Shown piece after piece: positions 7,760-53,700 of a DNA stretch of 53,756 nt. The notes beneath the pieces are model-generated. The model was not told the origin of the DNA. It ran no database searches and was given only the letters and a program-made list of their open reading frames with translations. Origin of the DNA: Symploca sp. SIO2C1 (GTDB lineage: Bacteria > Cyanobacteriota > Cyanobacteriia > Cyanobacteriales > Coleofasciculaceae); assembly GCA_010692635.1 (NCBI GenBank), contig JAAHGL010000014.1:1-53756 (forward strand). The letters run 5' to 3'. Each line of letters opens with the position of its first letter. The stretch's first letter is position 1. The translations under genes were made by a program, and so were the position numbers.

Positions 7760-7789
7760 GCACAAGAATACAGGAGTTGAAGAGTTCAG

Positions 7790-7850
7790 GATTGATTAAT
7801 TATCAATTATCAATTATCCATTATCCATTATCCATTAGTAATTGATATTA
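7790..7850. repeat. Tandem heptamer array (AATTATC / CATTATC), STRR-like.
   Basis: gattaattatcaattatcaattatccattatccattatccattag, read directly from the sequence. Confidence 0.6.
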
Positions 7851-8062
7851 GTTATACAAATTGCAGATCCAAGGTATTACTACTCATGTCTTTGGGGGTA
7901 AGCAAATGGTATTTAAATCAATGTAAATTGGTATAAGAATTGTCATTAATTACCAGTTAATCTCGTTAAATGATGCAATGTTTCAATAGTTATTGACCAT
8001 TTTCAATGGAACAATTATCAATTTTCAGAGGACTTACTACTCTATAGTGTTGATTTCCTCTT

Positions 8063-13195: not shown

Positions 13196-13241
13196 ATATT
13201 CTAGAGACGTGAAATGTTACATCTCTATACCTAGGTCAAAA

Positions 13242-14324
13242 TTAACCATTGATTACTGGAGCTGTTAAAGCAACCGGAGCAGCTTCACCAGCAGCCAAGT
13301 CTAAGGGGAAGTTGTGAGCATTACGCTCGTGCATTACCTCAAATCCTAAGTTAGCGCGGTTGAGAACATCCGCCCAGGTATTAACCACATGACCTTGAGA
13401 ATCCAACACAGACTGGTTGAAGTTAAAGCCATTAAGGTTGAACGCCATAGTGCTGATTCCCAATGCTGTGAACCAGATTCCAACTACTGGCCAAGCTCCT
13501 AAGAAGAAGTGCAACGAACGACTGTTGTTGAACGAAGCATATTGGAAGATTAGGCGACCGAAGTAACCATGAGCTGCCACGATGTTATAGGTTTCAGTTT
13601 CTTGACCGAACTTGTAACCGTAGTTTTGAGACTCGCTTTCGGTGGTTTCACGCACCAGAGAGGAAGTTACCAAAGAACCGTGCATAGCTGAGAACAGGGA
13701 ACCACCAAACACACCTGCTACTCCCAACATGTGGAAGGGGTGCATCAGGATGTTGTGCTCTGCTTGGAACACGAACATGAAGTTGAAGGTGCCACTGATT
13801 CCCAAAGGCATACCATCGGAGAAGCTACCTTGACCGAGGGGGTAAATTAGGAATACAGAGGTAGCTGCAGCTACAGGTGCACTGTAAGCAACACAGATCC
13901 AAGGACGCATTCCCAAACGATAGCTCAGCTCCCACTGACGACCCATCCAGCAGAAAATGCCGATCAGGAAGTGGAAAACGATCAACTGGTAGGGACCACC
14001 GTTGTAGAGCCACTCATCCAAGGAAGCTGCTTCCCAAATGGGGTAAAAGTGCAAGCCAATAGCGTTGGAAGAAGGGACAACCGCACCAGAGATGATGTTG
14101 TTGCCGTAAAGCAGAGAACCTGCTACTGGCTCCCGGATACCATCAATGTCCACGGCGGGAGCAGCGATGAAGGCAATAATGAAGCAAGTGGCGGCCGTTA
14201 GTAAGCAGGGAATCATCAGCACACCAAACCAGCCTACATAGAGGCGGTTATTGGTGGAGGTGATCCAGTTGCAAAACCTTTGCCATGCAGAGCCACCTTC
14301 GCGTCTTTCTAATGTGGTTGTCAT
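13242..14324 (-). CDS. psbA: Photosystem II D1 protein, copy 1 (Q130, D1:1-type).
   Basis: [34 protein letters not shown]... 360 aa. [16 protein letters not shown] gives Gln at position 130. Confidence 0.95.
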
Positions 14325-14860
14325 GTTTTAATGATTACAATCGTTTGTTTTTTATGTTAGCCCGACTTGATGTCAGCTTATACATAATTAGACTTATATT
14401 AATACCTTTCTTCATTTCTGTTCGTAAAGTTATTTAAAGAATTCGATAATTTAGTGTAAGAGGGCTTTTATCGAAAAATTTAGTAATTTGACCACAAAAG
14501 CTAGAAAAACAGCTTTAATTTGTTCTTCAATGCTTCATAACTCAGTTTTTGCTTAATTACGTGGTTTTGGACTCATGTGTTAAGGATTATTTACAATATT
14601 TATGTTAAGAAATGTCAACATAAATTTAGTGTAAGTTAAAAATTTCCAGTTTATACTTAAACAAAATAAACAAAACTTAATTGATTTTGTTTAAATGCTC
14701 CAAAAAACTTCCATAAAATCGCAATCTTATAAGCGTTAGAACGCAGTCTCGATGAAAAAATTTTTCACCACCAGGTGATGAAAGTAGGAGCACTCCTGTT
14801 CCCTATTCCCTACTTTCAAGTCAGGAGGCAGGGGACTCCGAGGCAGGAGCAGTAGGGGCG

Positions 14861-14910
14861 ATTAGCAATTAGCAATTAGCAATTAGCAATTAGCTTTGAG
14901 CGTGTTTCTC
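14861..14910. repeat. TTAGCAA heptamer array (x4-5) followed by the conserved tail tttgagcgtgtttctc.
   Basis: gattagcaattagcaattagcaattagcaattagctttgagcgtgtttctc. The same composite recurs at 22852-22908. Confidence 0.6.
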
Positions 14911-14930
14911 TATTGATGGAAGCCCTGAGA

Positions 14931-22626: not shown

Positions 22627-22851
22627 TACGCATTATAGTTAATTTAGAATTTAGAATTTAGTATCAATTAATAGTGAACCCCAGGTGTTGATCAAACAAC
22701 CTGGGGCCCAACATTGCTTTGGGAACTGGGCTATTGGGTATTACGGAGACTCAGTTAAGAGCTCTCCAGGAGCGCTTCCCACCCCCAATTGAATGGGAGA
22801 AACAAGTCTCTTACCTATTGCCAGACTCGGAGACTCGGTGTTTATTCAGAG

Positions 22852-22908
22852 ATTAGCAATTAGCAATTAGCCATTAGCCATTAGCTTTGAGTATGTTTCT
22901 CAAGAGTT
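22852..22908. repeat. TTAGCAA/TTAGCCA heptamer array plus conserved tail tttgagtatgtttctcaag.
   Basis: gattagcaattagcaattagccattagccattagctttgagtatgtttctcaagag. Confidence 0.6.
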
Positions 22909-27889: not shown

Positions 27890-28549
27890 TTATCGCCATA
27901 GTTTACCAAGAGGAGATGATTGCAGCCACTGAATGAACTGAGTTTGGTCATTATCTGGCATATCTTGCAATATATCGTTTACTCCCTCAGCAAAGTTAGT
28001 ACTGCCAAAATATTCTTTCCCTAGACGATGAAGTTCCTGCAGTAGGGTAATCAGATGGTGTTCTTCCCAAGGGGGAACCTGTAAAGTAGTTAATGGATCC
28101 ATTGTGAGCAAGTGATTGACTGCTTCAGAGGAGTCAGCTTGCGGGAAGTGCCATTGCCGAAAGATCTCAGTGATATCTTTTTGGAACAACTTAGCTTGCC
28201 TGCTTCCTAAGAGGTCTTCAACATCTATGAAAACCGTTTGTAGCAGTAAAAGACAAGCTTGGGTGTATGGCAAAACAGTTGAGTCAGGACCAGCTTCCTT
28301 CCCCAGTTGTTCCAGACGGATTTTTCCCCAAACACTGAAGCGATCGGGTTCCTCTAGCAAAACGCATGCCTTACCGCGATTATCAGTGAGATCTCGCCAG
28401 AAAGCTTTTGCTTCTTCTGCTTGTTGGGCACTAAACACGCTAATCAAACGAAAAGTTTGCCCCTGATAACTAAGAATCGGGATTTGCTGCTCCCGCTTTG
28501 GGTGCTGAATGCTAGAGATTTCAACATCCTGCCTTTTGAGAATAAACAT
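27890..28549 (-). CDS. Hypothetical protein (219 aa).
   Basis: Long ORF without recognisable motifs. Confidence 0.5.
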   Translation of the reverse strand: MFILKRQDVEISSIQHPKREQQIPILSYQGQTFRLISVFSAQQAEEAKAFWRDLTDNRGKACVLLEEPDRFSVWGKIRLEQLGKEAGPDSTVLPYTQACLLLLQTVFIDVEDLLGSRQAKLFQKDITEIFRQWHFPQADSSEAVNHLLTMDPLTTLQVPPWEEHHLITLLQELHRLGKEYFGSTNFAEGVNDILQDMPDNDQTQFIQWLQSSPLGKLWR

Positions 28550-29026
28550 AACATTGGCAAATGAGTGCTGACCGGATTGGGGATGGGAATGCTATGGTTG
28601 TAGCTAATACCCAAGTAACTATATCTCTATCCAGAATGCTGGTGTCAGGGTTTCACTGAGCCGCAATAAGCACAAAGCACTAGCTCTTCACTAAATCTCT
28701 GGTTTGGGATGATCGCCTTGAGTCTTACTAGTATTGAGACAAGCATTTGATGATCTTTGGTTTATAGTGTACCTTGAGCGTCAAGAGGTTAGAGTCTGTA
28801 GTTTGCTCAAGTTGATTGTTAGTGGTAGTTGCCTGGTAATGCCAACCACCGATACAATGCTTGATACTATCAGATCACTACTACTTGATGAATCAATGAT
28901 CATATGCTAAATCTTGAGGAATTGTGCGCAGAAGTTAATTTATTTTGCTATTGGGAGGAATGTTGAAGTGCACAACCTTGAGTAATTAACATCTGTTGTA
29001 GTTGTATGTGACTGCTCATTTATTAT

Positions 29027-29099
29027 GCCCTCGTAGCTCAGGGGATAGAGCAAGGGATTTCTAATCCCTTGGCCGTAGGTTCGAATCCTACCGAGGGCG
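29027..29099 (+). tRNA. tRNA-Arg (anticodon UCU).
   Basis: Cloverleaf with acceptor gccctcg/cgagggc, D-arm gctc-aggggata-gagc, anticodon arm aggga-tttctaa-tccct (anticodon TCT), T-arm gtagg-ttcgaat-cctac. No encoded CCA. Confidence 0.9.
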
Positions 29100-29190
29100 T
29101 TATCCCAAAATATACTTTTTTTCGTTCTCCTCTTAATCACGTAGCCTCACCCATTAAGGTGAGACTTCCCCTTCTACTCAAAATACGGTT

Positions 29191-29300
29191 TGATATCATG
29201 TCCGCCTAATCGCTTACAATAAAAACTTCTCCGAGTCCGGTGCGTCTCCGCGTCTGGAGCGTCAGCCTTAATGATAAGTATTCAACCGGACATGATATGA
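29191..29300. repeat. Small palindromic insertion with 14-bp TIRs (tgatatcatgtccg / cggacatgatatga), directly 3' of the tRNA.
   Basis: Inverted termini read directly from the sequence. Internal hairpin gtgcgtctccgcgtctggagcgtcagcc. Confidence 0.35.
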
Positions 29301-29310
29301 GAGTTGTCTA

Positions 29311-29463
29311 CTAGAACACCGATTCACTAACCAAAATTAGATGTAGGGGCGAAGCATTAGGCAAGGGTGTCAACTTAAAGTGAAACCCTTGCCCCACTGT
29401 CCGAATGCTTCGCCCTGAGATATCGATTTTGGCGTAAATATGAATACTGAATCGGTGTTCTAG
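29311..29463. mobile_element. MITE with TIRs ctagaacaccgattca / tgaatcggtgttctag (copy 1).
   Basis: About 150 bp with 16-bp TIRs. Internal gtaggggcgaagc...gcttcgccctga hairpin. Second copy at 46558-46706. Confidence 0.55.
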
Positions 29464-29756
29464 AGCTGCATGCCAAACAAAATCGACAAGATGATCAGTA
29501 TGAGCAACGCTACCGACCATTTCCAGAGTCGGTTAAGTCCTTTGAAAAGACTTGACCATCGTATGTAAAAGGAAATCCAATCTGAATGGAGATCATCACG
29601 GTCAGGTTCATTTACGATCTGTGTACGACCTGAAATTGCCGGACGCTGACGAACAATAATCATAGGCGATTGGTTCCGACCAAGGGAAGGGGCAGTGGCC
29701 AAACGCCCTCGTGCAGGAGGTCGTATCCTAGCTGAACGGCGGGGTAAACGATTCAT
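29460..29756 (-). CDS. Small Arg-rich, C-terminally membrane-anchored ORF, translationally coupled to the haloperoxidase gene.
   Basis: ATGA overlap with the upstream gene's stop at 29753-29756. Its last codons and the stop (TAG) fall inside the MITE terminus ctag at 29460-29463. Confidence 0.4.
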   Translation of the reverse strand: MNRLPRRSARIRPPARGRLATAPSLGRNQSPMIIVRQRPAISGRTQIVNEPDRDDLHSDWISFYIRWSSLFKGLNRLWKWSVALLILIILSILFGMQL

Positions 29757-31642
29757 CGGCGACCAATCCTAATCAAATCACCATCAAAAGTCGGCACGGA
29801 GAGCACGAACGGATCGGTGGAATAGGTCAACGCCTGTTCTTCAAGGATTCCGATCGCGATTTTTTCTCCCATGCGTAAGCTGTCGTAGTAATCGGTGAAG
29901 TAATGAACTCCAGCCATATTGCGGCCAATGGAAATGTTGGCTGCCAGTTTATTTAACTCACCTTCGAGGGTTAGGAATTGACTTGGGGTATAGCTAACGA
30001 GGCAATCAGCAGATACCCCCTCTCCAGCTCCAGGACCGGTCAGATTTGGAGCACGGAAAGCAATCGGAGTATCACCAGTTTCTAATCGCTTGAAGGCAGC
30101 TGCTCCTCCTCGGGTTTTGGCTAAAACTGCGCTGGTGTCGAAGAATGCCTTGAGGATAGTGACACAGGCTCCAGCAACAGTGGCATGTCCTGCACCATAG
30201 GCCGGATGCATGGGTGATCCTTCTGGGAAAGCCATTGGTAGGAAATAAGTTCCTTTTTCCTGACCTGGATCTCTGGGAAGAGCAGCAATAGCACTCAGAG
30301 TACTTTCGAGATCTTTCTTGAAGGCACAAATATCCGACTTGAGCACAGGAGGAATTTTCCCATCAGCAATGTGATTAGAGTTACTCTCTGGAAGACTATT
30401 GCGTCGCACCAGTTCAATTTTAGCTGCTAAAGCTTCTGGCCGTAACCGAATGTGATTATTGAACTTCTGAAAACGAACTGCTTTCAAGCCCCGCGTAGCA
30501 ACTTCGGTCACCAAATTTAAAATGTGCGGTCCGCCGTAAAGAGCAAAACCACCTGCGTTACGCTTTGTCTCAGTTCTTTTTGCCGCTTCTCCCACACCAG
30601 AGAGATGATCAAAGCCTGGGTCAAAGGGTGTCCCCATACCAAGCAGAATGATGCAAGCATTCAAATAGGCTTCGTATAGTGCATCGTAATGTACATAAGT
30701 AGCCAAATCACGGAGAGTTGAGATAAAGCGACGGGGTGGCCGCGTAGGAGGCATTGTGGGAGAACCCTTGGTTGAACCATAGGTTTCTCGGGGGGGTTTC
30801 AAACCGCGCTGAACCTCAACATAGCTCTTCATGCTTACCATATAATCTTTGCCCGGTTCTGCGATCGCCACCTTCTGATCGATTTGCAGTACCCCATAAG
30901 TGATTTTCCCCTCAGCGACGCTACCCCCTCCATTAAGATCGGTATTACCAACTAGCAGGAATTGAGAGAGATACGGACCCACCTCAACACCTGGAGAAGA
31001 ACCTCGGAATACTGTTTGAGCATCCAGTTCACCTTTATCATCAACCTTACGCGGACGACCAGTCTGTTTTTTTACGTAACTGAGGTTATTGAGACGGTTT
31101 AGGGAATTCTTAAGTTCAGGATTGGAGCTATTACATTCAAAGTCATTGAAGGGTTGATCTCGCAGTATGGCAAGCTCGTAGACCTCAGCCATTTCCAAAA
31201 CAAGTTCTGGATTGGTCTTACCACTTGCATTTAACAACGGAGGTGCAGGAGCCATAGTGACAGCCTGGGCATCTGGTCCCTCAAGTTCAAAAACAACTCC
31301 CGCTGTTGGAACTTCCCACTGCCTGATGTCTTCCGGTGCTGGTAGGCAGATCTGTATCACTCCATCTACTACCTCAAACCTGGCTCCATGACGAACTCTA
31401 TCAGAGAACGGATCAATAAAGCCATCATCGATCGCACGACGAAACTCTACAAAATCCTGGGCTTCTTGGAGCAAACCTGTTTCAGGATTATGAGGCAGTC
31501 CTTTTGTAAAGGACATGAAATATTGGCTATCAGCATACCTTTGCTCATCCCTATTTGCTTGGTGGATTGGATGCTGACGACTCCTTGCTAGCTCTGCAGC
31601 TTCAAGACGTACAGCATAAGATTCCTGACGACGATCAGACAT
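29753..31642 (-). CDS. Vanadium-dependent haloperoxidase (bromoperoxidase-like, PAP2 superfamily).
   Basis: Vanadate-site motifs K..RFQKFNNHIRLRP (K...RP), HPAYGAGHAT (P.Y.SGHA variant) and GRNMAGVHYFTD (R...G.H). Overall resemblance to algal and cyanobacterial V-BPOs. 629 aa. Confidence 0.75.
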   Translation of the reverse strand: MSDRRQESYAVRLEAAELARSRQHPIHQANRDEQRYADSQYFMSFTKGLPHNPETGLLQEAQDFVEFRRAIDDGFIDPFSDRVRHGARFEVVDGVIQICLPAPEDIRQWEVPTAGVVFELEGPDAQAVTMAPAPPLLNASGKTNPELVLEMAEVYELAILRDQPFNDFECNSSNPELKNSLNRLNNLSYVKKQTGRPRKVDDKGELDAQTVFRGSSPGVEVGPYLSQFLLVGNTDLNGGGSVAEGKITYGVLQIDQKVAIAEPGKDYMVSMKSYVEVQRGLKPPRETYGSTKGSPTMPPTRPPRRFISTLRDLATYVHYDALYEAYLNACIILLGMGTPFDPGFDHLSGVGEAAKRTETKRNAGGFALYGGPHILNLVTEVATRGLKAVRFQKFNNHIRLRPEALAAKIELVRRNSLPESNSNHIADGKIPPVLKSDICAFKKDLESTLSAIAALPRDPGQEKGTYFLPMAFPEGSPMHPAYGAGHATVAGACVTILKAFFDTSAVLAKTRGGAAAFKRLETGDTPIAFRAPNLTGPGAGEGVSADCLVSYTPSQFLTLEGELNKLAANISIGRNMAGVHYFTDYYDSLRMGEKIAIGILEEQALTYSTDPFVLSVPTFDGDLIRIGRR

Positions 31643-32687
31643 AAGAAACCTCTTGATGAAACAATGCTATTTTCTTGATGAAAAAATTTACGATGTTGTT
31701 TATTGCCCTCTAAATAGCAAAACCAAATTCAACTTCTAATGTGGATTAAATGTAGCTCCATGATATCAAGACTTTCATAAATTGGCTTCAAAAGTGAACA
31801 TTTTTATCTGAAAAAGATCGCACACTTTGAGCATCTAATTCACATTATGCGTAAATTAATTAAATGTCAGCTCTATCTTTGGGTTGACTGTCTCTTCATA
31901 GTAAAGTCTACATTGCGAAGAATTATTAAAATCTCAAAATCTAATGGTTTGAGCACAGTGGTTCTTATGTTAAGCTGTTCCGCATTTAAACTGTGATAAT
32001 TTTATTATCTTTGTTTTTGAGCTTTCGCCTCCATTTGATAATTAACCCTCCTTCATTGTTCTTTTAACAACCCAAGAAATCAGCAATTTCTAGCTGTGTC
32101 CTGCGACTATTCAATAACAATAAAATTATAATTTTTTCTCTAATTTCTCCATCCTCTTCTGTTTTAAGAGCTTTTTGCAGTTTTTCTTTTTGCTTTAGTA
32201 TTGGATGATTTTTGGCTGGTATATTTTCTATTATTTGCTTACTTGTTGATTTTTGTTATACCAATTTAAGTGCGGGACACCTTACCGTATCCAAGATTTA
32301 AATTATAGGAAAAAGCATAATGCTCAAAAATGCTTTGCGAAGTAAATAGAAAAAGTGCTTACAAAACAGGCATCCCTGATATCTATATCATGCAAAGTAT
32401 CGACTTTTGTTGGGTTCCGCTTCTGGTTTGAATCATAAACTATCTGTTAACTCTCTAAAAACGCTGCACCCAACCTACAAGATCTGCGATCACACATAAT
32501 CATGAGGGTGGGCATTCTCGTCAATCTCCAACAACAGCAACACAAGACTTTTCAAGCATCACTAGAGGAGAACTATGGTGAGGTAATGTCGTAATGTCGA
32601 GGTCTAATGACCAAGTTCACCGGGCGGTGGCGAAGAATTTACGAAAAATAGGGAGCAAACCGCCCACTGCTCCAGTGCAACGGCTTG

Positions 32688-33107
32688 TTAGCCACCGTCA
32701 GCTGTCTTGGCGGTAGTACGGAGGGTTTCCCTTTCCATCCACAGACCAATCGCAGGGAACTGAATCCAAAAAGAGAAGTAGAAGAAAGTGAGATACCAGT
32801 AGGGCTTAACAAATCCGATCCCAAGACCTTTGTACCAGCCGAGTAGCAGATAGTCGTAAACGAAAAGCGGAAGCGTTAGATAAAGAGCAAGCCAGCACGA
32901 ATTCGCTAGGTGCCTTCCGTTGCTCCAGTACTTCACCAGCGTGTATCGCGTGACTGGAAAGTACATCACCGTTACGATGAACAGGACTGAAACCTTCGCC
33001 CAGAGATACCACTGCTGGTAGTACTCAGGAAGTCCGATGAGGTAGAACGTGAGCCATGTCACGAAGCTGTATGCTAGCAGTTGAATATGCTTTCGTGCTG
33101 TTGTCAT
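32688..33107 (-). CDS. Hypothetical integral membrane protein (139 aa, ~4 TM helices, Trp/Tyr-rich).
   Basis: Hydrophobic segments YSFVTWLTFYLIGL, VSVLFIVTVMYF, LALYLTLPLFVYDYLLLGW, FFYFSFWIQFPAIGLW. Confidence 0.5.
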   Translation of the reverse strand: MTTARKHIQLLAYSFVTWLTFYLIGLPEYYQQWYLWAKVSVLFIVTVMYFPVTRYTLVKYWSNGRHLANSCWLALYLTLPLFVYDYLLLGWYKGLGIGFVKPYWYLTFFYFSFWIQFPAIGLWMERETLRTTAKTADGG

Positions 33108-33403
33108 TGCGAGGGGTTAATCAGATGTAATGTCTCAGGTGGTCAACTATATAGGGCTTGGGAGAATAAGTAACAAGGAATGAAGTATTTATCTGTACTG
33201 TTTACTACTGTGGTGGAAAAGAAATTGATCTCACGCCCTGATTTTGCACATATTTTTTAAGCTGTTCTATCGTTACATCACCACAGCTAGCTACAAAATA
33301 AAAGCCTCTCCAAAAGACACGTTTGTGATAAGTAGCCGATACTTCAGGTTCAAATTCTCTCCACATTGTCTTAGATGATGTGGATTTTCAATTAGCTATA
33401 AGG

Positions 33404-34705
33404 TTACTCAATTCTAGCTGGGGCATTGGCTTTGAGATAAGCCCCTTGCCCTAAGTGCCGTAGATTTGGATAGCAGCTCCGGTAATGTTCCTCGCTAACG
33501 AACAACCACAGGATGCGAGTGCGACGATTCTGGGGGGGTTGGGGGCAAGGGGCATAACCATCAGTGTAAATGATCAGGCCATCGTAATCGCGGTGTTCAT
33601 CAATATAGGTCACGACTGGCGCAAAATTCGTACCGCCACGTCCCGTTAGTTGGACTTCATGTTTTGCTCGACGGAAGATCATGACGTCGGTGGTAATCTG
33701 AGCATCAAATTGAATGACATCAATCGCAGGTACGCCGTAGTTGAAAAAGCGGTTAATCATCGAAAATCCTTGTTGGAGCTGTTCTGTGCCCATAGAGCCG
33801 CTGACATCGATCGCAAACAATAATCGTGTTGTAAAGTCGCGACGACTTCCCATATAGGTGAACCCATACCGGCGATTAGGCTTCATGCGCGTTAGCCGTC
33901 GCTGTTGGCTGAGGATGGAGGTGCGAAACTTGCGCAAGACAGCCCGATAGTCGAGTTTGGGGTGAAGATTCGCCAGGATATGTTCCCGCAATTTGCCCCC
34001 AATATTGCCCCAGCTGTCATTGGCTTGGGTCGTTTTTACCAACTCATCCAGGCGATCGCTCAACAATTCATCCTGATCCCACTGGTCCGTATTTTCGACC
34101 CCACTCAGGCTTGGGTCAGTATAGACTAAAAGTAGATCGCTGGGGAGATCGCCTGGGGTTGAAATCTCTTCAGATTCTGGTTCAGAAGATTCAGATTCAG
34201 AAGCTGCCGACGCGGGTGCGGTCTCAGCTGTACCCATACCCGCTGTCGTCGCTCCGGATGCTGTCCCTTCTGAGCTGAAGGTTGGTGCGGTGGGTGGTTG
34301 TTGGTCAAGCAGTTGGTGGTAGTAGAACTCGAAGAACTGTTTATCATAGCTGCGATCGCCAAACACATCCCGCGCGCGCGGAAACGGCAGTTCGGTTTGC
34401 AAATATTCCTGTAGCGTCAAATTGCTGGCAGCATAGCTGATGGCTGAATGCGCTTGGCGGCGACTGTAGGGATGTTTGAGGAGAATTCGCAGCGCCTCGA
34501 AACGTAATGTTGCTTCCAAGTGGCGATCGCTCAGCTGCTCGATAAAACCGGGATTGTACTCGATGCAACCCCGCTGAACGCGAATGGTTTGGATGCGGGG
34601 TTCGGGGACTAAAGCGTGACTGGTCCAGGTTGCTAACAACAATGGCTCCACGAGCAGCCACTTTTCAATAATCCGAGCAATGCGCTGACGAGCAAATTTC
34701 CTCAT
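33404..34705 (-). CDS. VWA-domain protein of the DUF2201-like type (putative metallopeptidase-like N-domain + VWA with MIDAS), normally the partner of a MoxR AAA ATPase.
   Basis: MIDAS motif LLFAIDVSGSMG with downstream T and D. N-terminal RIARIIEKWLLVEPLL... helical domain. Its first ~18 codons are duplicated at 40657-40709, coupled to the AAA gene there. Confidence 0.7.
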   Translation of the reverse strand: MRKFARQRIARIIEKWLLVEPLLLATWTSHALVPEPRIQTIRVQRGCIEYNPGFIEQLSDRHLEATLRFEALRILLKHPYSRRQAHSAISYAASNLTLQEYLQTELPFPRARDVFGDRSYDKQFFEFYYHQLLDQQPPTAPTFSSEGTASGATTAGMGTAETAPASAASESESSEPESEEISTPGDLPSDLLLVYTDPSLSGVENTDQWDQDELLSDRLDELVKTTQANDSWGNIGGKLREHILANLHPKLDYRAVLRKFRTSILSQQRRLTRMKPNRRYGFTYMGSRRDFTTRLLFAIDVSGSMGTEQLQQGFSMINRFFNYGVPAIDVIQFDAQITTDVMIFRRAKHEVQLTGRGGTNFAPVVTYIDEHRDYDGLIIYTDGYAPCPQPPQNRRTRILWLFVSEEHYRSCYPNLRHLGQGAYLKANAPARIE

Positions 34706-34843
34706 AGCCAAGGTTCAGGTCGAAGGTCAAACTAATAAATAACAAGTAAGGCGATCTCTGAGAAAGAAAATACTAATGCATCGCGTAGGTCAATCGGCGC
34801 AACAATTTCAATTTGTTCTTTTGGCAAGCCGACTACGGATTTC

Positions 34844-36333: not shown

Positions 36334-36610
36334 GTCAACTTAATTATTGCTAAATGACGTCTAAACTACCGTTTTCTGCATATGATGTGGTATCAGATTA
36401 GGTTATTCAGGAAATATTATGCTAAATTATCACAAACACAACCCAAAATGCTACTCCACAATGATGCATAACCATTGAGCTCTCATTGAGAAAGAAAACA
36501 AATTATAAAAAAACTTAAAGCTATAGAGGCTAAATCTGTGGTTGATTGATTTGTTATGCTACTGCTCAAGCCAATCGAACGAATTCATAAAGAATTCTCT
36601 GGCATTATTA

Positions 36611-36773
36611 TCAATGGATAATTGATAATTGATAATTGATAATTGGTTAATTTGGTCTAAGACCTCTTCAAAAATGCAAGAAAATAAAAAGAAAATATTT
36701 TCCTGATTGTCAATCCTCTTCTTTCAAGGAGAGGTAATTATCCATTATCCATTGTTCATTATTAATTGTTGAA
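36611..36773. mobile_element. MITE with heptamer-repeat TIRs (tcaatggataattgataatt ... aattatccattg), copy A.
   Basis: About 85-90% identical over ~165 bp to the reverse complement of 49595-49770. Core: ggtctaagacctcttca...aaagaaaatattttcct...caatcctcttctttcaaggagaggtaattatcc. Confidence 0.55.
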
Positions 36774-37355
36774 TAATACAAAATTGGGAAGTGATCGCCA
36801 AGAGGCGTTTTTTTCCAGGAAGAAGAGCGGTGTAACGAGATAATCAAAAACAGCTGTTCTCCCGGACTTGATTGGGATAGGTGATCTGGGTCGTTTTAGC
36901 TGGGTTTTAGCAGGTTTGGTGAGAAGTTAATTGAGCCTAGAAAAACCCAACACCAACAGCTCTCACGAGTACCTGAAACGCTTGGAATTCTGACAAGGGA
37001 ATTGCCTACTCACTTGCTCTTCACATTGGCAGCGAATAAAGGTTATTTCTTTTGAGTGTTGGGTTTCACTTCGTTCTACCCAACCTACAGCGAGCGATCG
37101 CACTATCGAGATTTAGAATCTTTATCGATTTGATGAGAATGGTGGTACTGCGACTAACAGAGTAGCGATCGCCCCTGAAAATATCAGCATTTTGAGAAAA
37201 AAATATAGGAATTTTGGTATGGCAATAGGTCGCCTGAGTTCTATTTTTGACTGAATCTGAATATCTCCGATCGCCAAATTATCTTGAATAAGGGAATCAA
37301 GTGGCGATCGTAAAAGCTATCAACAGCTTCAGCTTCGGACTATTGAATCAAACCG

Positions 37356-40631: not shown

Positions 40632-40709
40632 TCAACCCAGAACCAGGCATTCAGTTAGCAGCCACTTTTCAATAATGCGAGCAATGCGCTGAAGAGTCGA
40701 GATTTTCAT
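40632..40709 (-). pseudogene. Orphaned 5' end of the VWA gene, still start/stop-overlapped (ATGA) with the MoxR gene. It encodes MKISTLQRIARIIEKWLL and then hits a stop inside a repeat.
   Basis: 40657-40696 is near-identical (2 mismatches in 40) to 34653-34692. The ATG at 40709-40707 overlaps the AAA gene's stop TGA. Confidence 0.5.
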
Positions 40710-52557: not shown

Positions 52558-52617
52558 TGAAAGTTAGTAAGAATCAAAAGATTGAATTAATACTTGTGTA
52601 TTCAACCTTAGTTACTC

Positions 52618-53700
52618 TTAACCATTGATTACAGGAGCGGTTAGTGCAACTGGAGCTGCTTCACCTGCTGCCAAATCTAAGGGGAAGTTGTGAGCATTAC
52701 GCTCGTGCATTACTTCAAATCCTAAGTTGGCGCGGTTGAGCACATCTGCCCAGGTTCCTACTACTCGTCCTTGTGAATCAATTACACTCTGGTTGAAGTT
52801 GAATCCATTCAGGTTGAACGCCATGGTGCTGATTCCCAATGCTGTGAACCAGATACCGATTACTGGCCATGCACCTAAGAAGAAGTGCAAGGAACGGCTG
52901 TTGTTGAATGAAGCATATTGGAAGATCAAACGACCGAAGTAGCCATGAGCTGCCACGATGTTGTAGGTTTCTTCCTCTTGTCCAAACTTGTAGCCGTAGT
53001 TCTGAGACTCACTCTCTGTAGTTTCACGAACCAAAGAAGAGGTTACCAAAGAACCGTGCATTGCACTGAACAGTGAACCACCGAATACACCTGCTACTCC
53101 CAACATGTGGAAGGGGTGCATTAGGATGTTGTGCTCTGCTTGGAACACGAACATGAAGTTGAAGGTTCCGCTGATACCCAAAGGCATTCCGTCGGAGAAG
53201 CTACCTTGACCGAGAGGGTAGATTAAGAATACGGAGGTAGCTGCGGCTACAGGAGCACTGTAAGCAACACAGATCCAAGGACGCATTCCTAAGCGATAGC
53301 TGAGTTCCCACTGACGACCCATGTAGGAGAAGATACCAACGAGGAAGTGGAAAACAACTAGTTGGTAGGGACCACCGTTGTAGAGCCACTCATCCAAGGA
53401 AGCAGCTTCCCAGATGGGATAGAAGTGCAAGCCAATGGCGTTAGAAGAAGGAACAACAGCACCGGAGATGATGTTGTTGCCATAAAGCAAGGAGCCAGCA
53501 ACAGGCTCACGGATGCCATCAATGTCCACAGGAGGAGCAGCGATGAAGGCAATGATGAAGCAAGTGGTAGCAGTGAGTAAGCAAGGGATCATCAATACAC
53601 CGAACCAGCCGACATAAATGCGGTTGTTGGTGGAGGTGATCCAATTGCAGAACTGCTGCCAAACAGAAGCGCTTTCGCGTTGCTGTAGGGTAGTAGTCAT
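52618..53700 (-). CDS. psbA: Photosystem II D1 protein, copy 2 (Q130).
   Basis: [34 protein letters not shown]... 360 aa. About 95% aa identity to copy 1. MGRQWELS gives Gln130. Confidence 0.95.

Follow-up and report, generated by a model that had tools for sequence, protein, structure and literature searches.

A family of small tail-anchored proteins encoded directly after bromoperoxidase-type vanadium haloperoxidases in cyanobacteria and purple sulfur bacteria

The haloperoxidase locus of Symploca sp. SIO2C1 is best explained as a self-contained module of two genes: a vanadium-dependent haloperoxidase (V-HPO) of the bromoperoxidase type, and a partner of 98 amino acids (aa) whose start codon overlaps the stop codon of the enzyme gene. 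The DNA in question, called the window below, is the whole 53,756-bp contig JAAHGL010000014.1 of assembly GCA_010692635.1, a metagenome-assembled genome (MAG) labelled with that name. The enzyme gene is ordinary and has already been annotated by NCBI, and the miniature inverted-repeat transposable element (MITE) that follows the pair and the region that precedes it are routine; the novelty of the locus, and its chief interest, lies in the small coupled open reading frame (ORF). The partner founds a compact, stand-alone, undescribed family of small proteins dedicated to a well-studied enzyme. That it is a real gene, selected and linked to V-HPO, can be held with high confidence; what it does is a matter for more tentative argument. 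The features that make up the pair are these:

29753..31642, minus strand: V-HPO of the bromoperoxidase type, 629 aa (ORF and homology to structures in the PDB)
29460..29756, minus strand: 98-aa partner gene (ORF, ATGA overlap and conservation)
29767..29770, minus strand: AGGA, a Shine-Dalgarno-like element for the partner, 10 nucleotides (nt) upstream of its ATG

The overlap is one of 4 nt: in the sequence ATGA, the partner ATG (29756-29754) runs over the TGA of V-HPO (29755-29753). The original prediction had drawn attention to an Arg-rich, tail-anchored mini-ORF joined to the enzyme gene in this way, and comparison bears it out as a conserved coupled gene. Eighty genome loci were fetched with the V-HPO and searched by tblastn with the 98-aa product; the set scanned systematically came to 83 related loci (L numbers below), in 49 of which a coupled partner ORF begins one nucleotide ahead of the V-HPO stop. 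The closest copies are those of Caldora (L067, 90% identity) and of L081 (85%; P0122); the partner-bearing loci also include Leptolyngbya, Xenococcus, Pleurocapsa, Phormidesmis and Acaryochloris marina MBIC11017 (L017), and five loci of purple sulfur gammaproteobacteria (L053, L057, L060, L063 and L075). The same 4-nt overlap appears in the independent gene calls of L081-L083, and three database members retrieved independently show the same arrangement of enzyme and partner. Every family member with examinable context lies directly after a V-HPO gene, in cyanobacteria and Chromatiaceae, within neighbourhoods that are otherwise unrelated. Apart from a near-identical Caldora contig, no conserved neighbour of V-HPO other than the partner was found; what outlasts rearrangement and horizontal transfer is the two genes together.

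The pattern of substitution points to a protein. Pairwise ratios of nonsynonymous to synonymous substitution (dN/dS) for the partner are 0.16-0.48 among five orthologues, and V-HPO itself gives 0.26 against Caldora. Across 42 loci, the invariant partner residues draw on several codons each (R16 on 6, G17 on 3, R18 on 6), and the start ATG is unvarying (42 of 42). Low dN/dS, varied codons at invariant residues and an invariant start together mark the protein as the target of selection, and not an RNA or DNA element. The protein collection has no entry for the window copy; gene callers evidently passed it over. That the ORF is not a gene, being instead an RNA or DNA element (a terminator or 3' untranslated region (UTR), for example) or a frameshifted C-terminal extension of V-HPO, is almost certainly wrong: the skipping of the window copy by gene callers and the recovery of only 21 homologues by indexed search would fit such an account, but dN/dS well under 1, the use of three to six codons at invariant residues and the constancy of the ATG do not. 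A frameshift fusion was considered and rejected, as the window has an in-frame stop 5 codons upstream of the partner ATG, with another in L003, and no slippery heptamer; nor did the database searches find any natural fusion of V-HPO with the partner.

The layout of the junction suggests that translation of the partner is coupled to that of the enzyme. The AGGA before the partner ATG is made by an AGG Arg codon in the C-terminal R-I-G-R-R of V-HPO. Partner-bearing loci mostly have AGGA at this position, the rest having CGGA or AGAA; partner-less loci have AGAA, CGGA, CAGA or CGCA. This correlation, drawn from loci that are phylogenetically non-independent, fits a Shine-Dalgarno role.

The family has so far escaped description. 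No credible Pfam match was obtained for 34 family members, and the window copy matches nothing in Pfam or NCBIfam. An exhaustive profile search of 1.84 billion cluster representatives returned 75 family matches, all of 51-207 aa and nearly all matching from residue 1, with no fusion to another domain among them; the 21 homologues from the indexed search are all unnamed or 'hypothetical'. Full-text literature searches on a small, transmembrane or tail-anchored V-HPO-associated protein found nothing relevant, and a genome-neighbourhood study of bacterial V-HPOs mentions no such small protein (PMC11312541). With no family model to catch it, and with gene callers frequently skipping it, the partner has gone unnoticed.

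Its architecture is simple. In the window copy an N-terminal motif, MNRLPRRSARIRPPARGRLA, is succeeded by the patch IIVRQRPA, then by NRLWKW as juxtamembrane box and by a transmembrane (TM) helix at about residues 80-98. In the alignment of 34 sequences the N-terminal motif is near-invariant, M-N/S-R-L-P-R-R-P-x-R-I/V-x-P-P-L-R-G-R-x-A-A; the second patch reads V-V-R-Q-R-P-P, the juxtamembrane box R-P-W-K-W, and the hydrophobic helix ends 2-6 residues before the stop. Residues M1, R6, P14, R16, G17, R18 and A20 are nearly invariant (alignment A2). The spacer, by contrast, is very variable in length and composition, total partner length being 75-208 aa. The window protein contains 14 Arg, with a pI of 12 and a net charge of +10.5 over residues 1-45, and its hydropathy reaches a 19-residue maximum of 2.37 starting at residue 80 of 98. 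AlphaFold 2 (AF2), run on an alignment of 20 sequences, gave residues 1-57 a predicted confidence (pLDDT) of 51-62 and within them just one short helix (15-21), and modelled residues 58-97 as one long helix (pLDDT 83-96); on this model, the partner is a disordered linear motif carried on a tail anchor. It has what is expected of a tail-anchored protein, namely a single C-terminal TM helix and a charged, non-hydrophobic N-terminus with no signal peptide, and the same layout recurs in the great majority of family members. By the positive-inside rule, the charge of the N-terminus predicts that it is cytoplasmic (N-in), with the C-terminus in the membrane.

Two partners, L026:5893-6519 and P0128 (L087:582-1205), are of 207-208 aa; here the N-terminal module, RLPRxxxRxxPPLRGR plus a FAPVASVRRP patch, is duplicated in tandem, as a whole, in front of one TM helix. 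Such duplication indicates that the N-terminal 40 residues or so are an independent functional unit.

The identity of the enzyme is virtually certain: by homology, the 629-aa ORF is a vanadium-dependent haloperoxidase of the Corallina/Acaryochloris bromoperoxidase type. Its sequence is 100% identical to the NCBI protein 'vanadium-dependent haloperoxidase' [Symploca sp. SIO2C1]. Among PDB chains, phmmer placed A. marina AmVHPO first (5lpc_A, E 2.6e-130), followed by Corallina officinalis (1qhb_A, 4.2e-117) and C. pilulifera (1up8, about 1e-115); further matches were 8vgx and 5aa6, with Ascophyllum 1qi9 more distant, and the PDB-wide matches were vanadium bromoperoxidases only. The alignment with 1qhb joins query residues 3-504 to chain residues 10-503 and more, so that homology of the Corallina type takes in the large N-terminal part and runs the whole length; the original prediction was thus correct in likening the N-terminal domain to those of algal bromoperoxidases.

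The three vanadate motif blocks it had named (K...RP, P.Y.(S/A)GHA and R...G.H) were all located as well. The first is G385-LKAVRFQKFNNHIRLRPE, with K393 and R401-P402; the second is P477-MHPAYGAGHA, with H479 and P480-x-Y-x-A484-G485-H486-A; the third is I572-GRNMAGVHY, with R574, G578 and H580, the last the predicted vanadium ligand. K393, R401-P402, A484-G485-H486, R574 and H580 are each aligned to the matching AmVHPO residue. The original prediction had named misaligned catalytic residues as the sign of a wrong assignment; none was found, the active-site blocks aligning residue for residue.

The second shell is also of the bromoperoxidase type. In the phmmer alignment, R390 corresponds to AmVHPO R425 and K393 to AmVHPO K428 (the chain numbering is offset by a 27-residue tag); R390 thus occupies the AmVHPO R425 / CpVBPO R397 position, and H479 sits where chloroperoxidase has Phe. 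AmVHPO R425 is a second-shell residue of halide specificity and K428 the active-site lysine; the wild-type enzyme, with Arg425, brominates and chlorinates little, while the R425S mutant gains chlorination (PMC11871015). From this equivalence, the window enzyme is predicted to brominate and iodinate but not to chlorinate.

Against Pfam-A and NCBIfam, hmmscan found no family for V-HPO even at E<=10; a check with hidden Markov models (HMMs) of the PF01569 type had been proposed with the original prediction, and when run it gave zero matches at that same permissive cut-off. PF01569 (PAP2) is likewise absent from the precomputed annotation tables for this protein; those tables give PF22778 (VCPO_2nd) for V-HPO and its relatives, marked 'weak' or 'faint' in some of the latter. 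The assignment is based on homology to solved structures instead, since no curated HMM matched, and such models seem to cover this clade of V-HPOs poorly. The family is large: at least 6,979 database proteins score at E<=1e-20 among 8,000 candidates scored. The original prediction's description of V-HPOs as sporadic in cyanobacteria is accordingly overstated for marine filamentous taxa.

Comparison with characterized enzymes places the pair. AmVHPO (5LPC; mutants 8Q20-8Q22) shares with the window enzyme the vanadate-site motifs, including the Ala that replaces a Corallina Ser, as well as Arg at the R425 position and the absence of a signal peptide. The two belong to different paralogue groups, however: the crystallized protein ends ...GGSIQI. 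The other V-HPO paralogue of A. marina MBIC11017 (L017; NC_009925.1, within 1176626-1186482), 626 aa long and 73% identical to the window V-HPO, ends ...RIGRR. It is this paralogue, distinct from crystallized AmVHPO (5LPC), that is followed by a coupled partner, of 93 aa (L017:5878-6159); as a carrier of the pair, A. marina MBIC11017 is suited to experimental tests of the partner. The bromoperoxidases (V-BPOs) of C. officinalis and C. pilulifera (1QHB, 1UP8) have the same set of catalytic residues and Arg at the CpVBPO R397 position; they differ in being eukaryotic, red-algal enzymes, and we know of no coupled small membrane protein for them.

The distribution of the partner was read on a distance clustering of V-HPOs. 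Most of the cyanobacterial clade carries it, as does the Chromatiaceae clade, and it is absent from the alphaproteobacterial V-HPO clades (58-61% identical). Within the cyanobacteria it is missing from Moorena, Okeania, Dapis, Trichodesmium, two other 'Symploca' MAGs, Spirulina, Mastigocoleus and Richelia. In some loci (L008, L014, L051, L055, L056) a decayed state is seen, in which the ATGA is kept and is followed by stop-riddled sequence or a decayed ORF. Remnants of the ATGA in several partner-less lineages indicate that the partner has been lost repeatedly.

What the partner does for the enzyme can be approached from these properties. In the proposed sequence of events, the first gene would yield a cytoplasmic V-bromoperoxidase with no signal peptide, using H2O2 to oxidize bromide or iodide to hypohalous acid; the second would be translated by termination-reinitiation at the ATGA, and thus made alongside the enzyme. 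The partner would sit in the membrane by its C-terminal helix, with the conserved Arg/Pro-rich motif facing the cytoplasm at the end of a disordered spacer of variable length. Most likely, this motif would bind the mildly acidic V-HPO oligomer and hold it against the cytoplasmic side of a membrane, either thylakoid or plasma membrane. Hypobromous acid (HOBr) would then be made beside the membrane, close to a source of H2O2, to lipophilic substrates or to an exit route, and not in the bulk cytoplasm.

Several features lead to this docking tether: predicted translational coupling; strict linkage to V-HPO; a basic, disordered motif; a variable spacer; a tail anchor; and an enzyme that is oligomeric and lacks a signal. 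The opposite charges count in its favor, the partner N-terminus at +10.5 facing a V-HPO with a net charge of -6.4 and a pI of 6.0. AmVHPO is a dodecamer (PMC11871015), and the characterized cyanobacterial V-HPOs have no signal peptides (PMC11312541). Variable spacer length and the duplicated module of L026 and P0128 are in keeping with a tether that is both flexible and multivalent and serves an oligomer.

A parallel can be drawn with tail-anchored subunits that keep soluble redox enzymes at a membrane, such as the small subunit of the [NiFe]-hydrogenases, which combines a C-terminal membrane anchor with an N-terminal twin-arginine signal for export of its partner along with itself. The likeness is by analogy: a small, co-expressed protein with a C-terminal TM helix and an N-terminal Arg motif, next to an enzyme that has no signal. 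Unlike the hydrogenase subunit, the 98-aa partner has no h-region, no folded domain and no cofactor site, and homology between the two was undetected. Export by a Tat signal, with the enzyme as hitch-hiker, was rejected: after the RR (residues 6-7) comes SARIRPPARGRLATAPSLGRNQ, which adds five more Arg and has no hydrophobic stretch, so that the h-region is absent.

Other observations weigh against a tether. The partners of L012 and L016 have no clearly hydrophobic C-terminus. Sixteen partner-less loci and 7 decayed ones (Moorena, Okeania, Dapis, Trichodesmium and others) keep V-HPO all the same. When V-HPO columns were screened for conservation confined to partner-bearing loci, a single weak candidate emerged: P283, replaced by Q in partner-less lineages that may share ancestry. 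In vitro, both crystallized AmVHPO and the Corallina enzymes show activity on their own (PMC11871015), so the partner is not needed for catalysis. On balance, membrane tethering through direct binding is a tentative proposal, to which slightly less than even weight can be given. Much the same holds for the broader statement that the partner is a dedicated docking subunit of an undescribed family, its motif recruiting a soluble oligomeric bromoperoxidase to the membrane: this is possible rather than probable. The explanation as a whole, two-gene module and tether mechanism together, falls a little short of an even chance.

A second account, unlikely though deserving of attention, makes the partner an accessory factor specific to V-HPO and not a tether: it might capture vanadate and hand it over, act as a chaperone of oligomer assembly, or inhibit or regulate the enzyme so as to limit damage by HOBr. 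Strict linkage and coupling apply to it equally; the invariant R-G-R and R-R are chemically suited to oxyanions such as vanadate or phosphate, and the vanadate cofactor is scarce in seawater. Recombinant homologues, however, take up vanadate and are active with no partner supplied; cofactor loading has no obvious need for a membrane anchor or for a spacer of variable length; and apparently intact V-HPOs are kept in lineages that lack the partner.

A third account dissociates the two products altogether, the partner sharing a transcript with V-HPO and having no part in its biochemistry: it could be a stress protein like ElaB/YqjD, or a small membrane toxin or peptide. In E. coli, ElaB and YqjD are tail-anchored, stress-related proteins whose basic N-termini bind ribosomes, and an Arg-rich, disordered N-terminus on a tail anchor does recall such tail-anchored proteins that bind ribosomes or nucleic acid. 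This account is improbable. All members with examinable context stand directly after V-HPO in neighbourhoods that have nothing else in common; 75 representatives are far fewer than a generic stress protein would be expected to have; and zero matches to ElaB-type families were found in Pfam or NCBIfam.

Downstream of the pair lie the following:

29311..29463, strand not applicable: MITE-like element of 153 nt (terminal inverted repeats and a second copy)
29193..29298: second small inverted-repeat element, between the MITE and the tRNA gene, with arms of 31 nt, 71% complementary
29026..29100, plus strand: tRNA-Arg(TCT) (ARAGORN; Rfam RF00005 at 72 bits)

The tRNA gene is convergent with the V-HPO operon and marks its downstream boundary. 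The MITE contains no ORF, is bounded on each side by CTAG and has 29-nt terminal inverted repeats (arms 83% complementary); its other copy, at 46558-46707, aligns in two blocks, of 92% and 86% identity, and the terminal 20 nt are also found in L052. Its RNA folds at -75.2 kcal/mol (z = -10.4), with the partner stop codon included in the outer, basal stem. It resembles cyanobacterial MITEs in its 153-nt length, lack of ORFs, inverted repeats, intergenic position and stable hairpin, and in having at least two copies in the window; unlike them, its insertion is associated with loss of some 44 nt found in the closest relative. Where the window has the MITE, Caldora L067 has those 44 nt or so, with a short hairpin, and the element appears to have landed on or beside a CTAG and replaced them. 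Whether in one copy or the other, the bounding CTAG could belong to the element itself or represent a CTAG/TA target-site duplication. The MITE may now serve as a putative 3' stabilizer or terminator of the operon.

The original prediction was right that a MITE abuts the partner stop codon; its further claim, that the insertion redefined the C-terminus, does not hold. In L067, L081, L062 and L001, none of which has the MITE, the partner ends in the same way, ...ATGC(A/G)GCTC TAG, after 98 codons; the stop codon, the C-terminus and the length of 98 aa are therefore ancestral. The element at 29193-29298 has matches of 24-35 nt in Okeania and Symploca loci (L050, L052 and L056), and the distance from stop codon to tRNA is about 960 nt in Caldora against about 330 nt in the window, which makes the spacer a hot spot for small insertions and deletions.

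Beyond the tRNA, on the minus strand at 27890-28549, lies a gene for a DUF7469 / Npun_F0813-family protein (E 4e-114). Synteny here extends to the Caldora contig L067 alone (97% nucleotide identity over 1.3 kb), which puts the lineage of the window much nearer to the 'Caldora' MAG than to the remaining 'Symploca' MAGs; the V-HPOs of the latter share about 70% identity with that of the window and have no partner.

Upstream of the enzyme gene the features are:

31643..31807, minus strand: conserved operon 5' region (blastn against related loci)
31808..32640, minus strand: AT-rich intergenic DNA lacking homology in the related loci fetched
32652..32673, minus strand: terminator-like hairpin with a T-run (consensus scan only)
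32688-33107: 139-aa membrane-protein ORF, with the hairpin 32652-32673 directly after it

The region 31643-32640 had been presented in the original prediction as an unusually long leader of about 1 kb, perhaps a complex promoter, a 5' leader or a small RNA (sRNA) locus. It is indeed AT-rich (GC about 30-32% over 31650-32400) and has no ORF longer than 60 aa, the longest in 31808..32640 being at most 49 aa at a GC fraction of 0.30-0.32. It is not unusually long: the 53.7-kb window holds five stretches of at least 1 kb free of ORFs of 100 aa or more, among which this one ranks fourth. Nor is a long gap conserved, the upstream distance at V-HPO loci having a median of 395 nt and reaching at least 800 nt in 6 of 57.

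The more specific suggestions fared poorly. A permissive cmscan of 28500-33500 against Rfam (E<=1) returned only the tRNA and one sub-threshold chance match inside it; promoter-like sites over 28900-32800 numbered 6, against 6.8 expected from shuffles, and are thus not enriched. Set against the closest full-length relative, conservation is confined to 31643-31807, which is 90% identical over 165 nt to L081/L082/L083 and has a 69-nt core common to L001/L062 (blastn); no homology upstream of 31807 was found in the related loci fetched. An AAGAGG Shine-Dalgarno (31654-31649) lies 6 nt before the V-HPO ATG. The terminator-like hairpin after the 139-aa ORF suggests that the V-HPO operon has its own promoter, probably within the conserved 165 nt; to judge from the sequence, this segment probably holds both promoter and 5' UTR, and the rest of the region looks like lineage-specific filler.

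That a MITE gave the mini-ORF its stop codon and C-terminus, and that the 1-kb region is a complex leader, riboswitch or sRNA locus, is thus very improbable: a MITE does abut the stop codon and the upstream region is ORF-free and AT-rich, but relatives with no MITE have the identical stop and the 98-aa length, Rfam yields nothing there, conservation stops at 165 nt, and long gaps are common in the window.

Within the upstream region, at 32067-32222 on the minus strand, there is an open stretch, IPAKNHPILKQKEKLQKALKTEEDGEIREKIIILLLLNSRRTQLEIADFLGC, closed by a stop codon, reminiscent of the helix-turn-helix at the N-terminus of transposases or regulators. Its Pfam matches are sub-threshold only (HTH_24, E 0.009; HTH_23, E 0.12) and tblastn found no support for it in plasmids or related loci; it is possibly a degraded helix-turn-helix coding remnant.

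The window contains other repeats. The second MITE copy (46558-46707) directly adjoins a repeated element with copies at 43201-43315 and 46446-46560 (79-93% identity), and the arrangement over 46446-46707 suggests nested or clustered small mobile elements. Heptanucleotide tandem repeats of the ATTATCC, ATTATCA and AATTAGC types lie at 7777-7861, 14846-14924, 22837-22901, 36607-36778 and 49595-49786; some are mutually inverted (for example 36678-36773 and 49595-49690, with 96-nt arms at 94% complementarity). A 300-nt direct repeat (13229-13528 and 52605-52904, 85% identity) has its copies 39 kb apart. A 40-nt repeat (34653-34692 and 40657-40696, 95% identity) has its first copy near the 5' end of a DUF2201/VWA-like metallopeptidase-type gene (33404-34711, minus strand), and may mark a paralogous gene pair.

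Marine cyanobacterial V-bromoperoxidases are thought to drive the emission of bromoform and other organobromines, and V-bromoperoxidases are widely used as biocatalysts. If the docking of the enzyme by its partner is true, the native V-HPOs of cyanobacteria and purple sulfur bacteria are membrane-associated two-component systems, and all biochemical and biocatalytic studies so far have dealt with an enzyme deprived of its natural partner. Co-expression of the partner is suggested when the native function of V-HPO is studied. The partner makes open to direct experiment the questions of where the enzyme is located, how self-poisoning by HOBr is avoided, and what the native substrates are.

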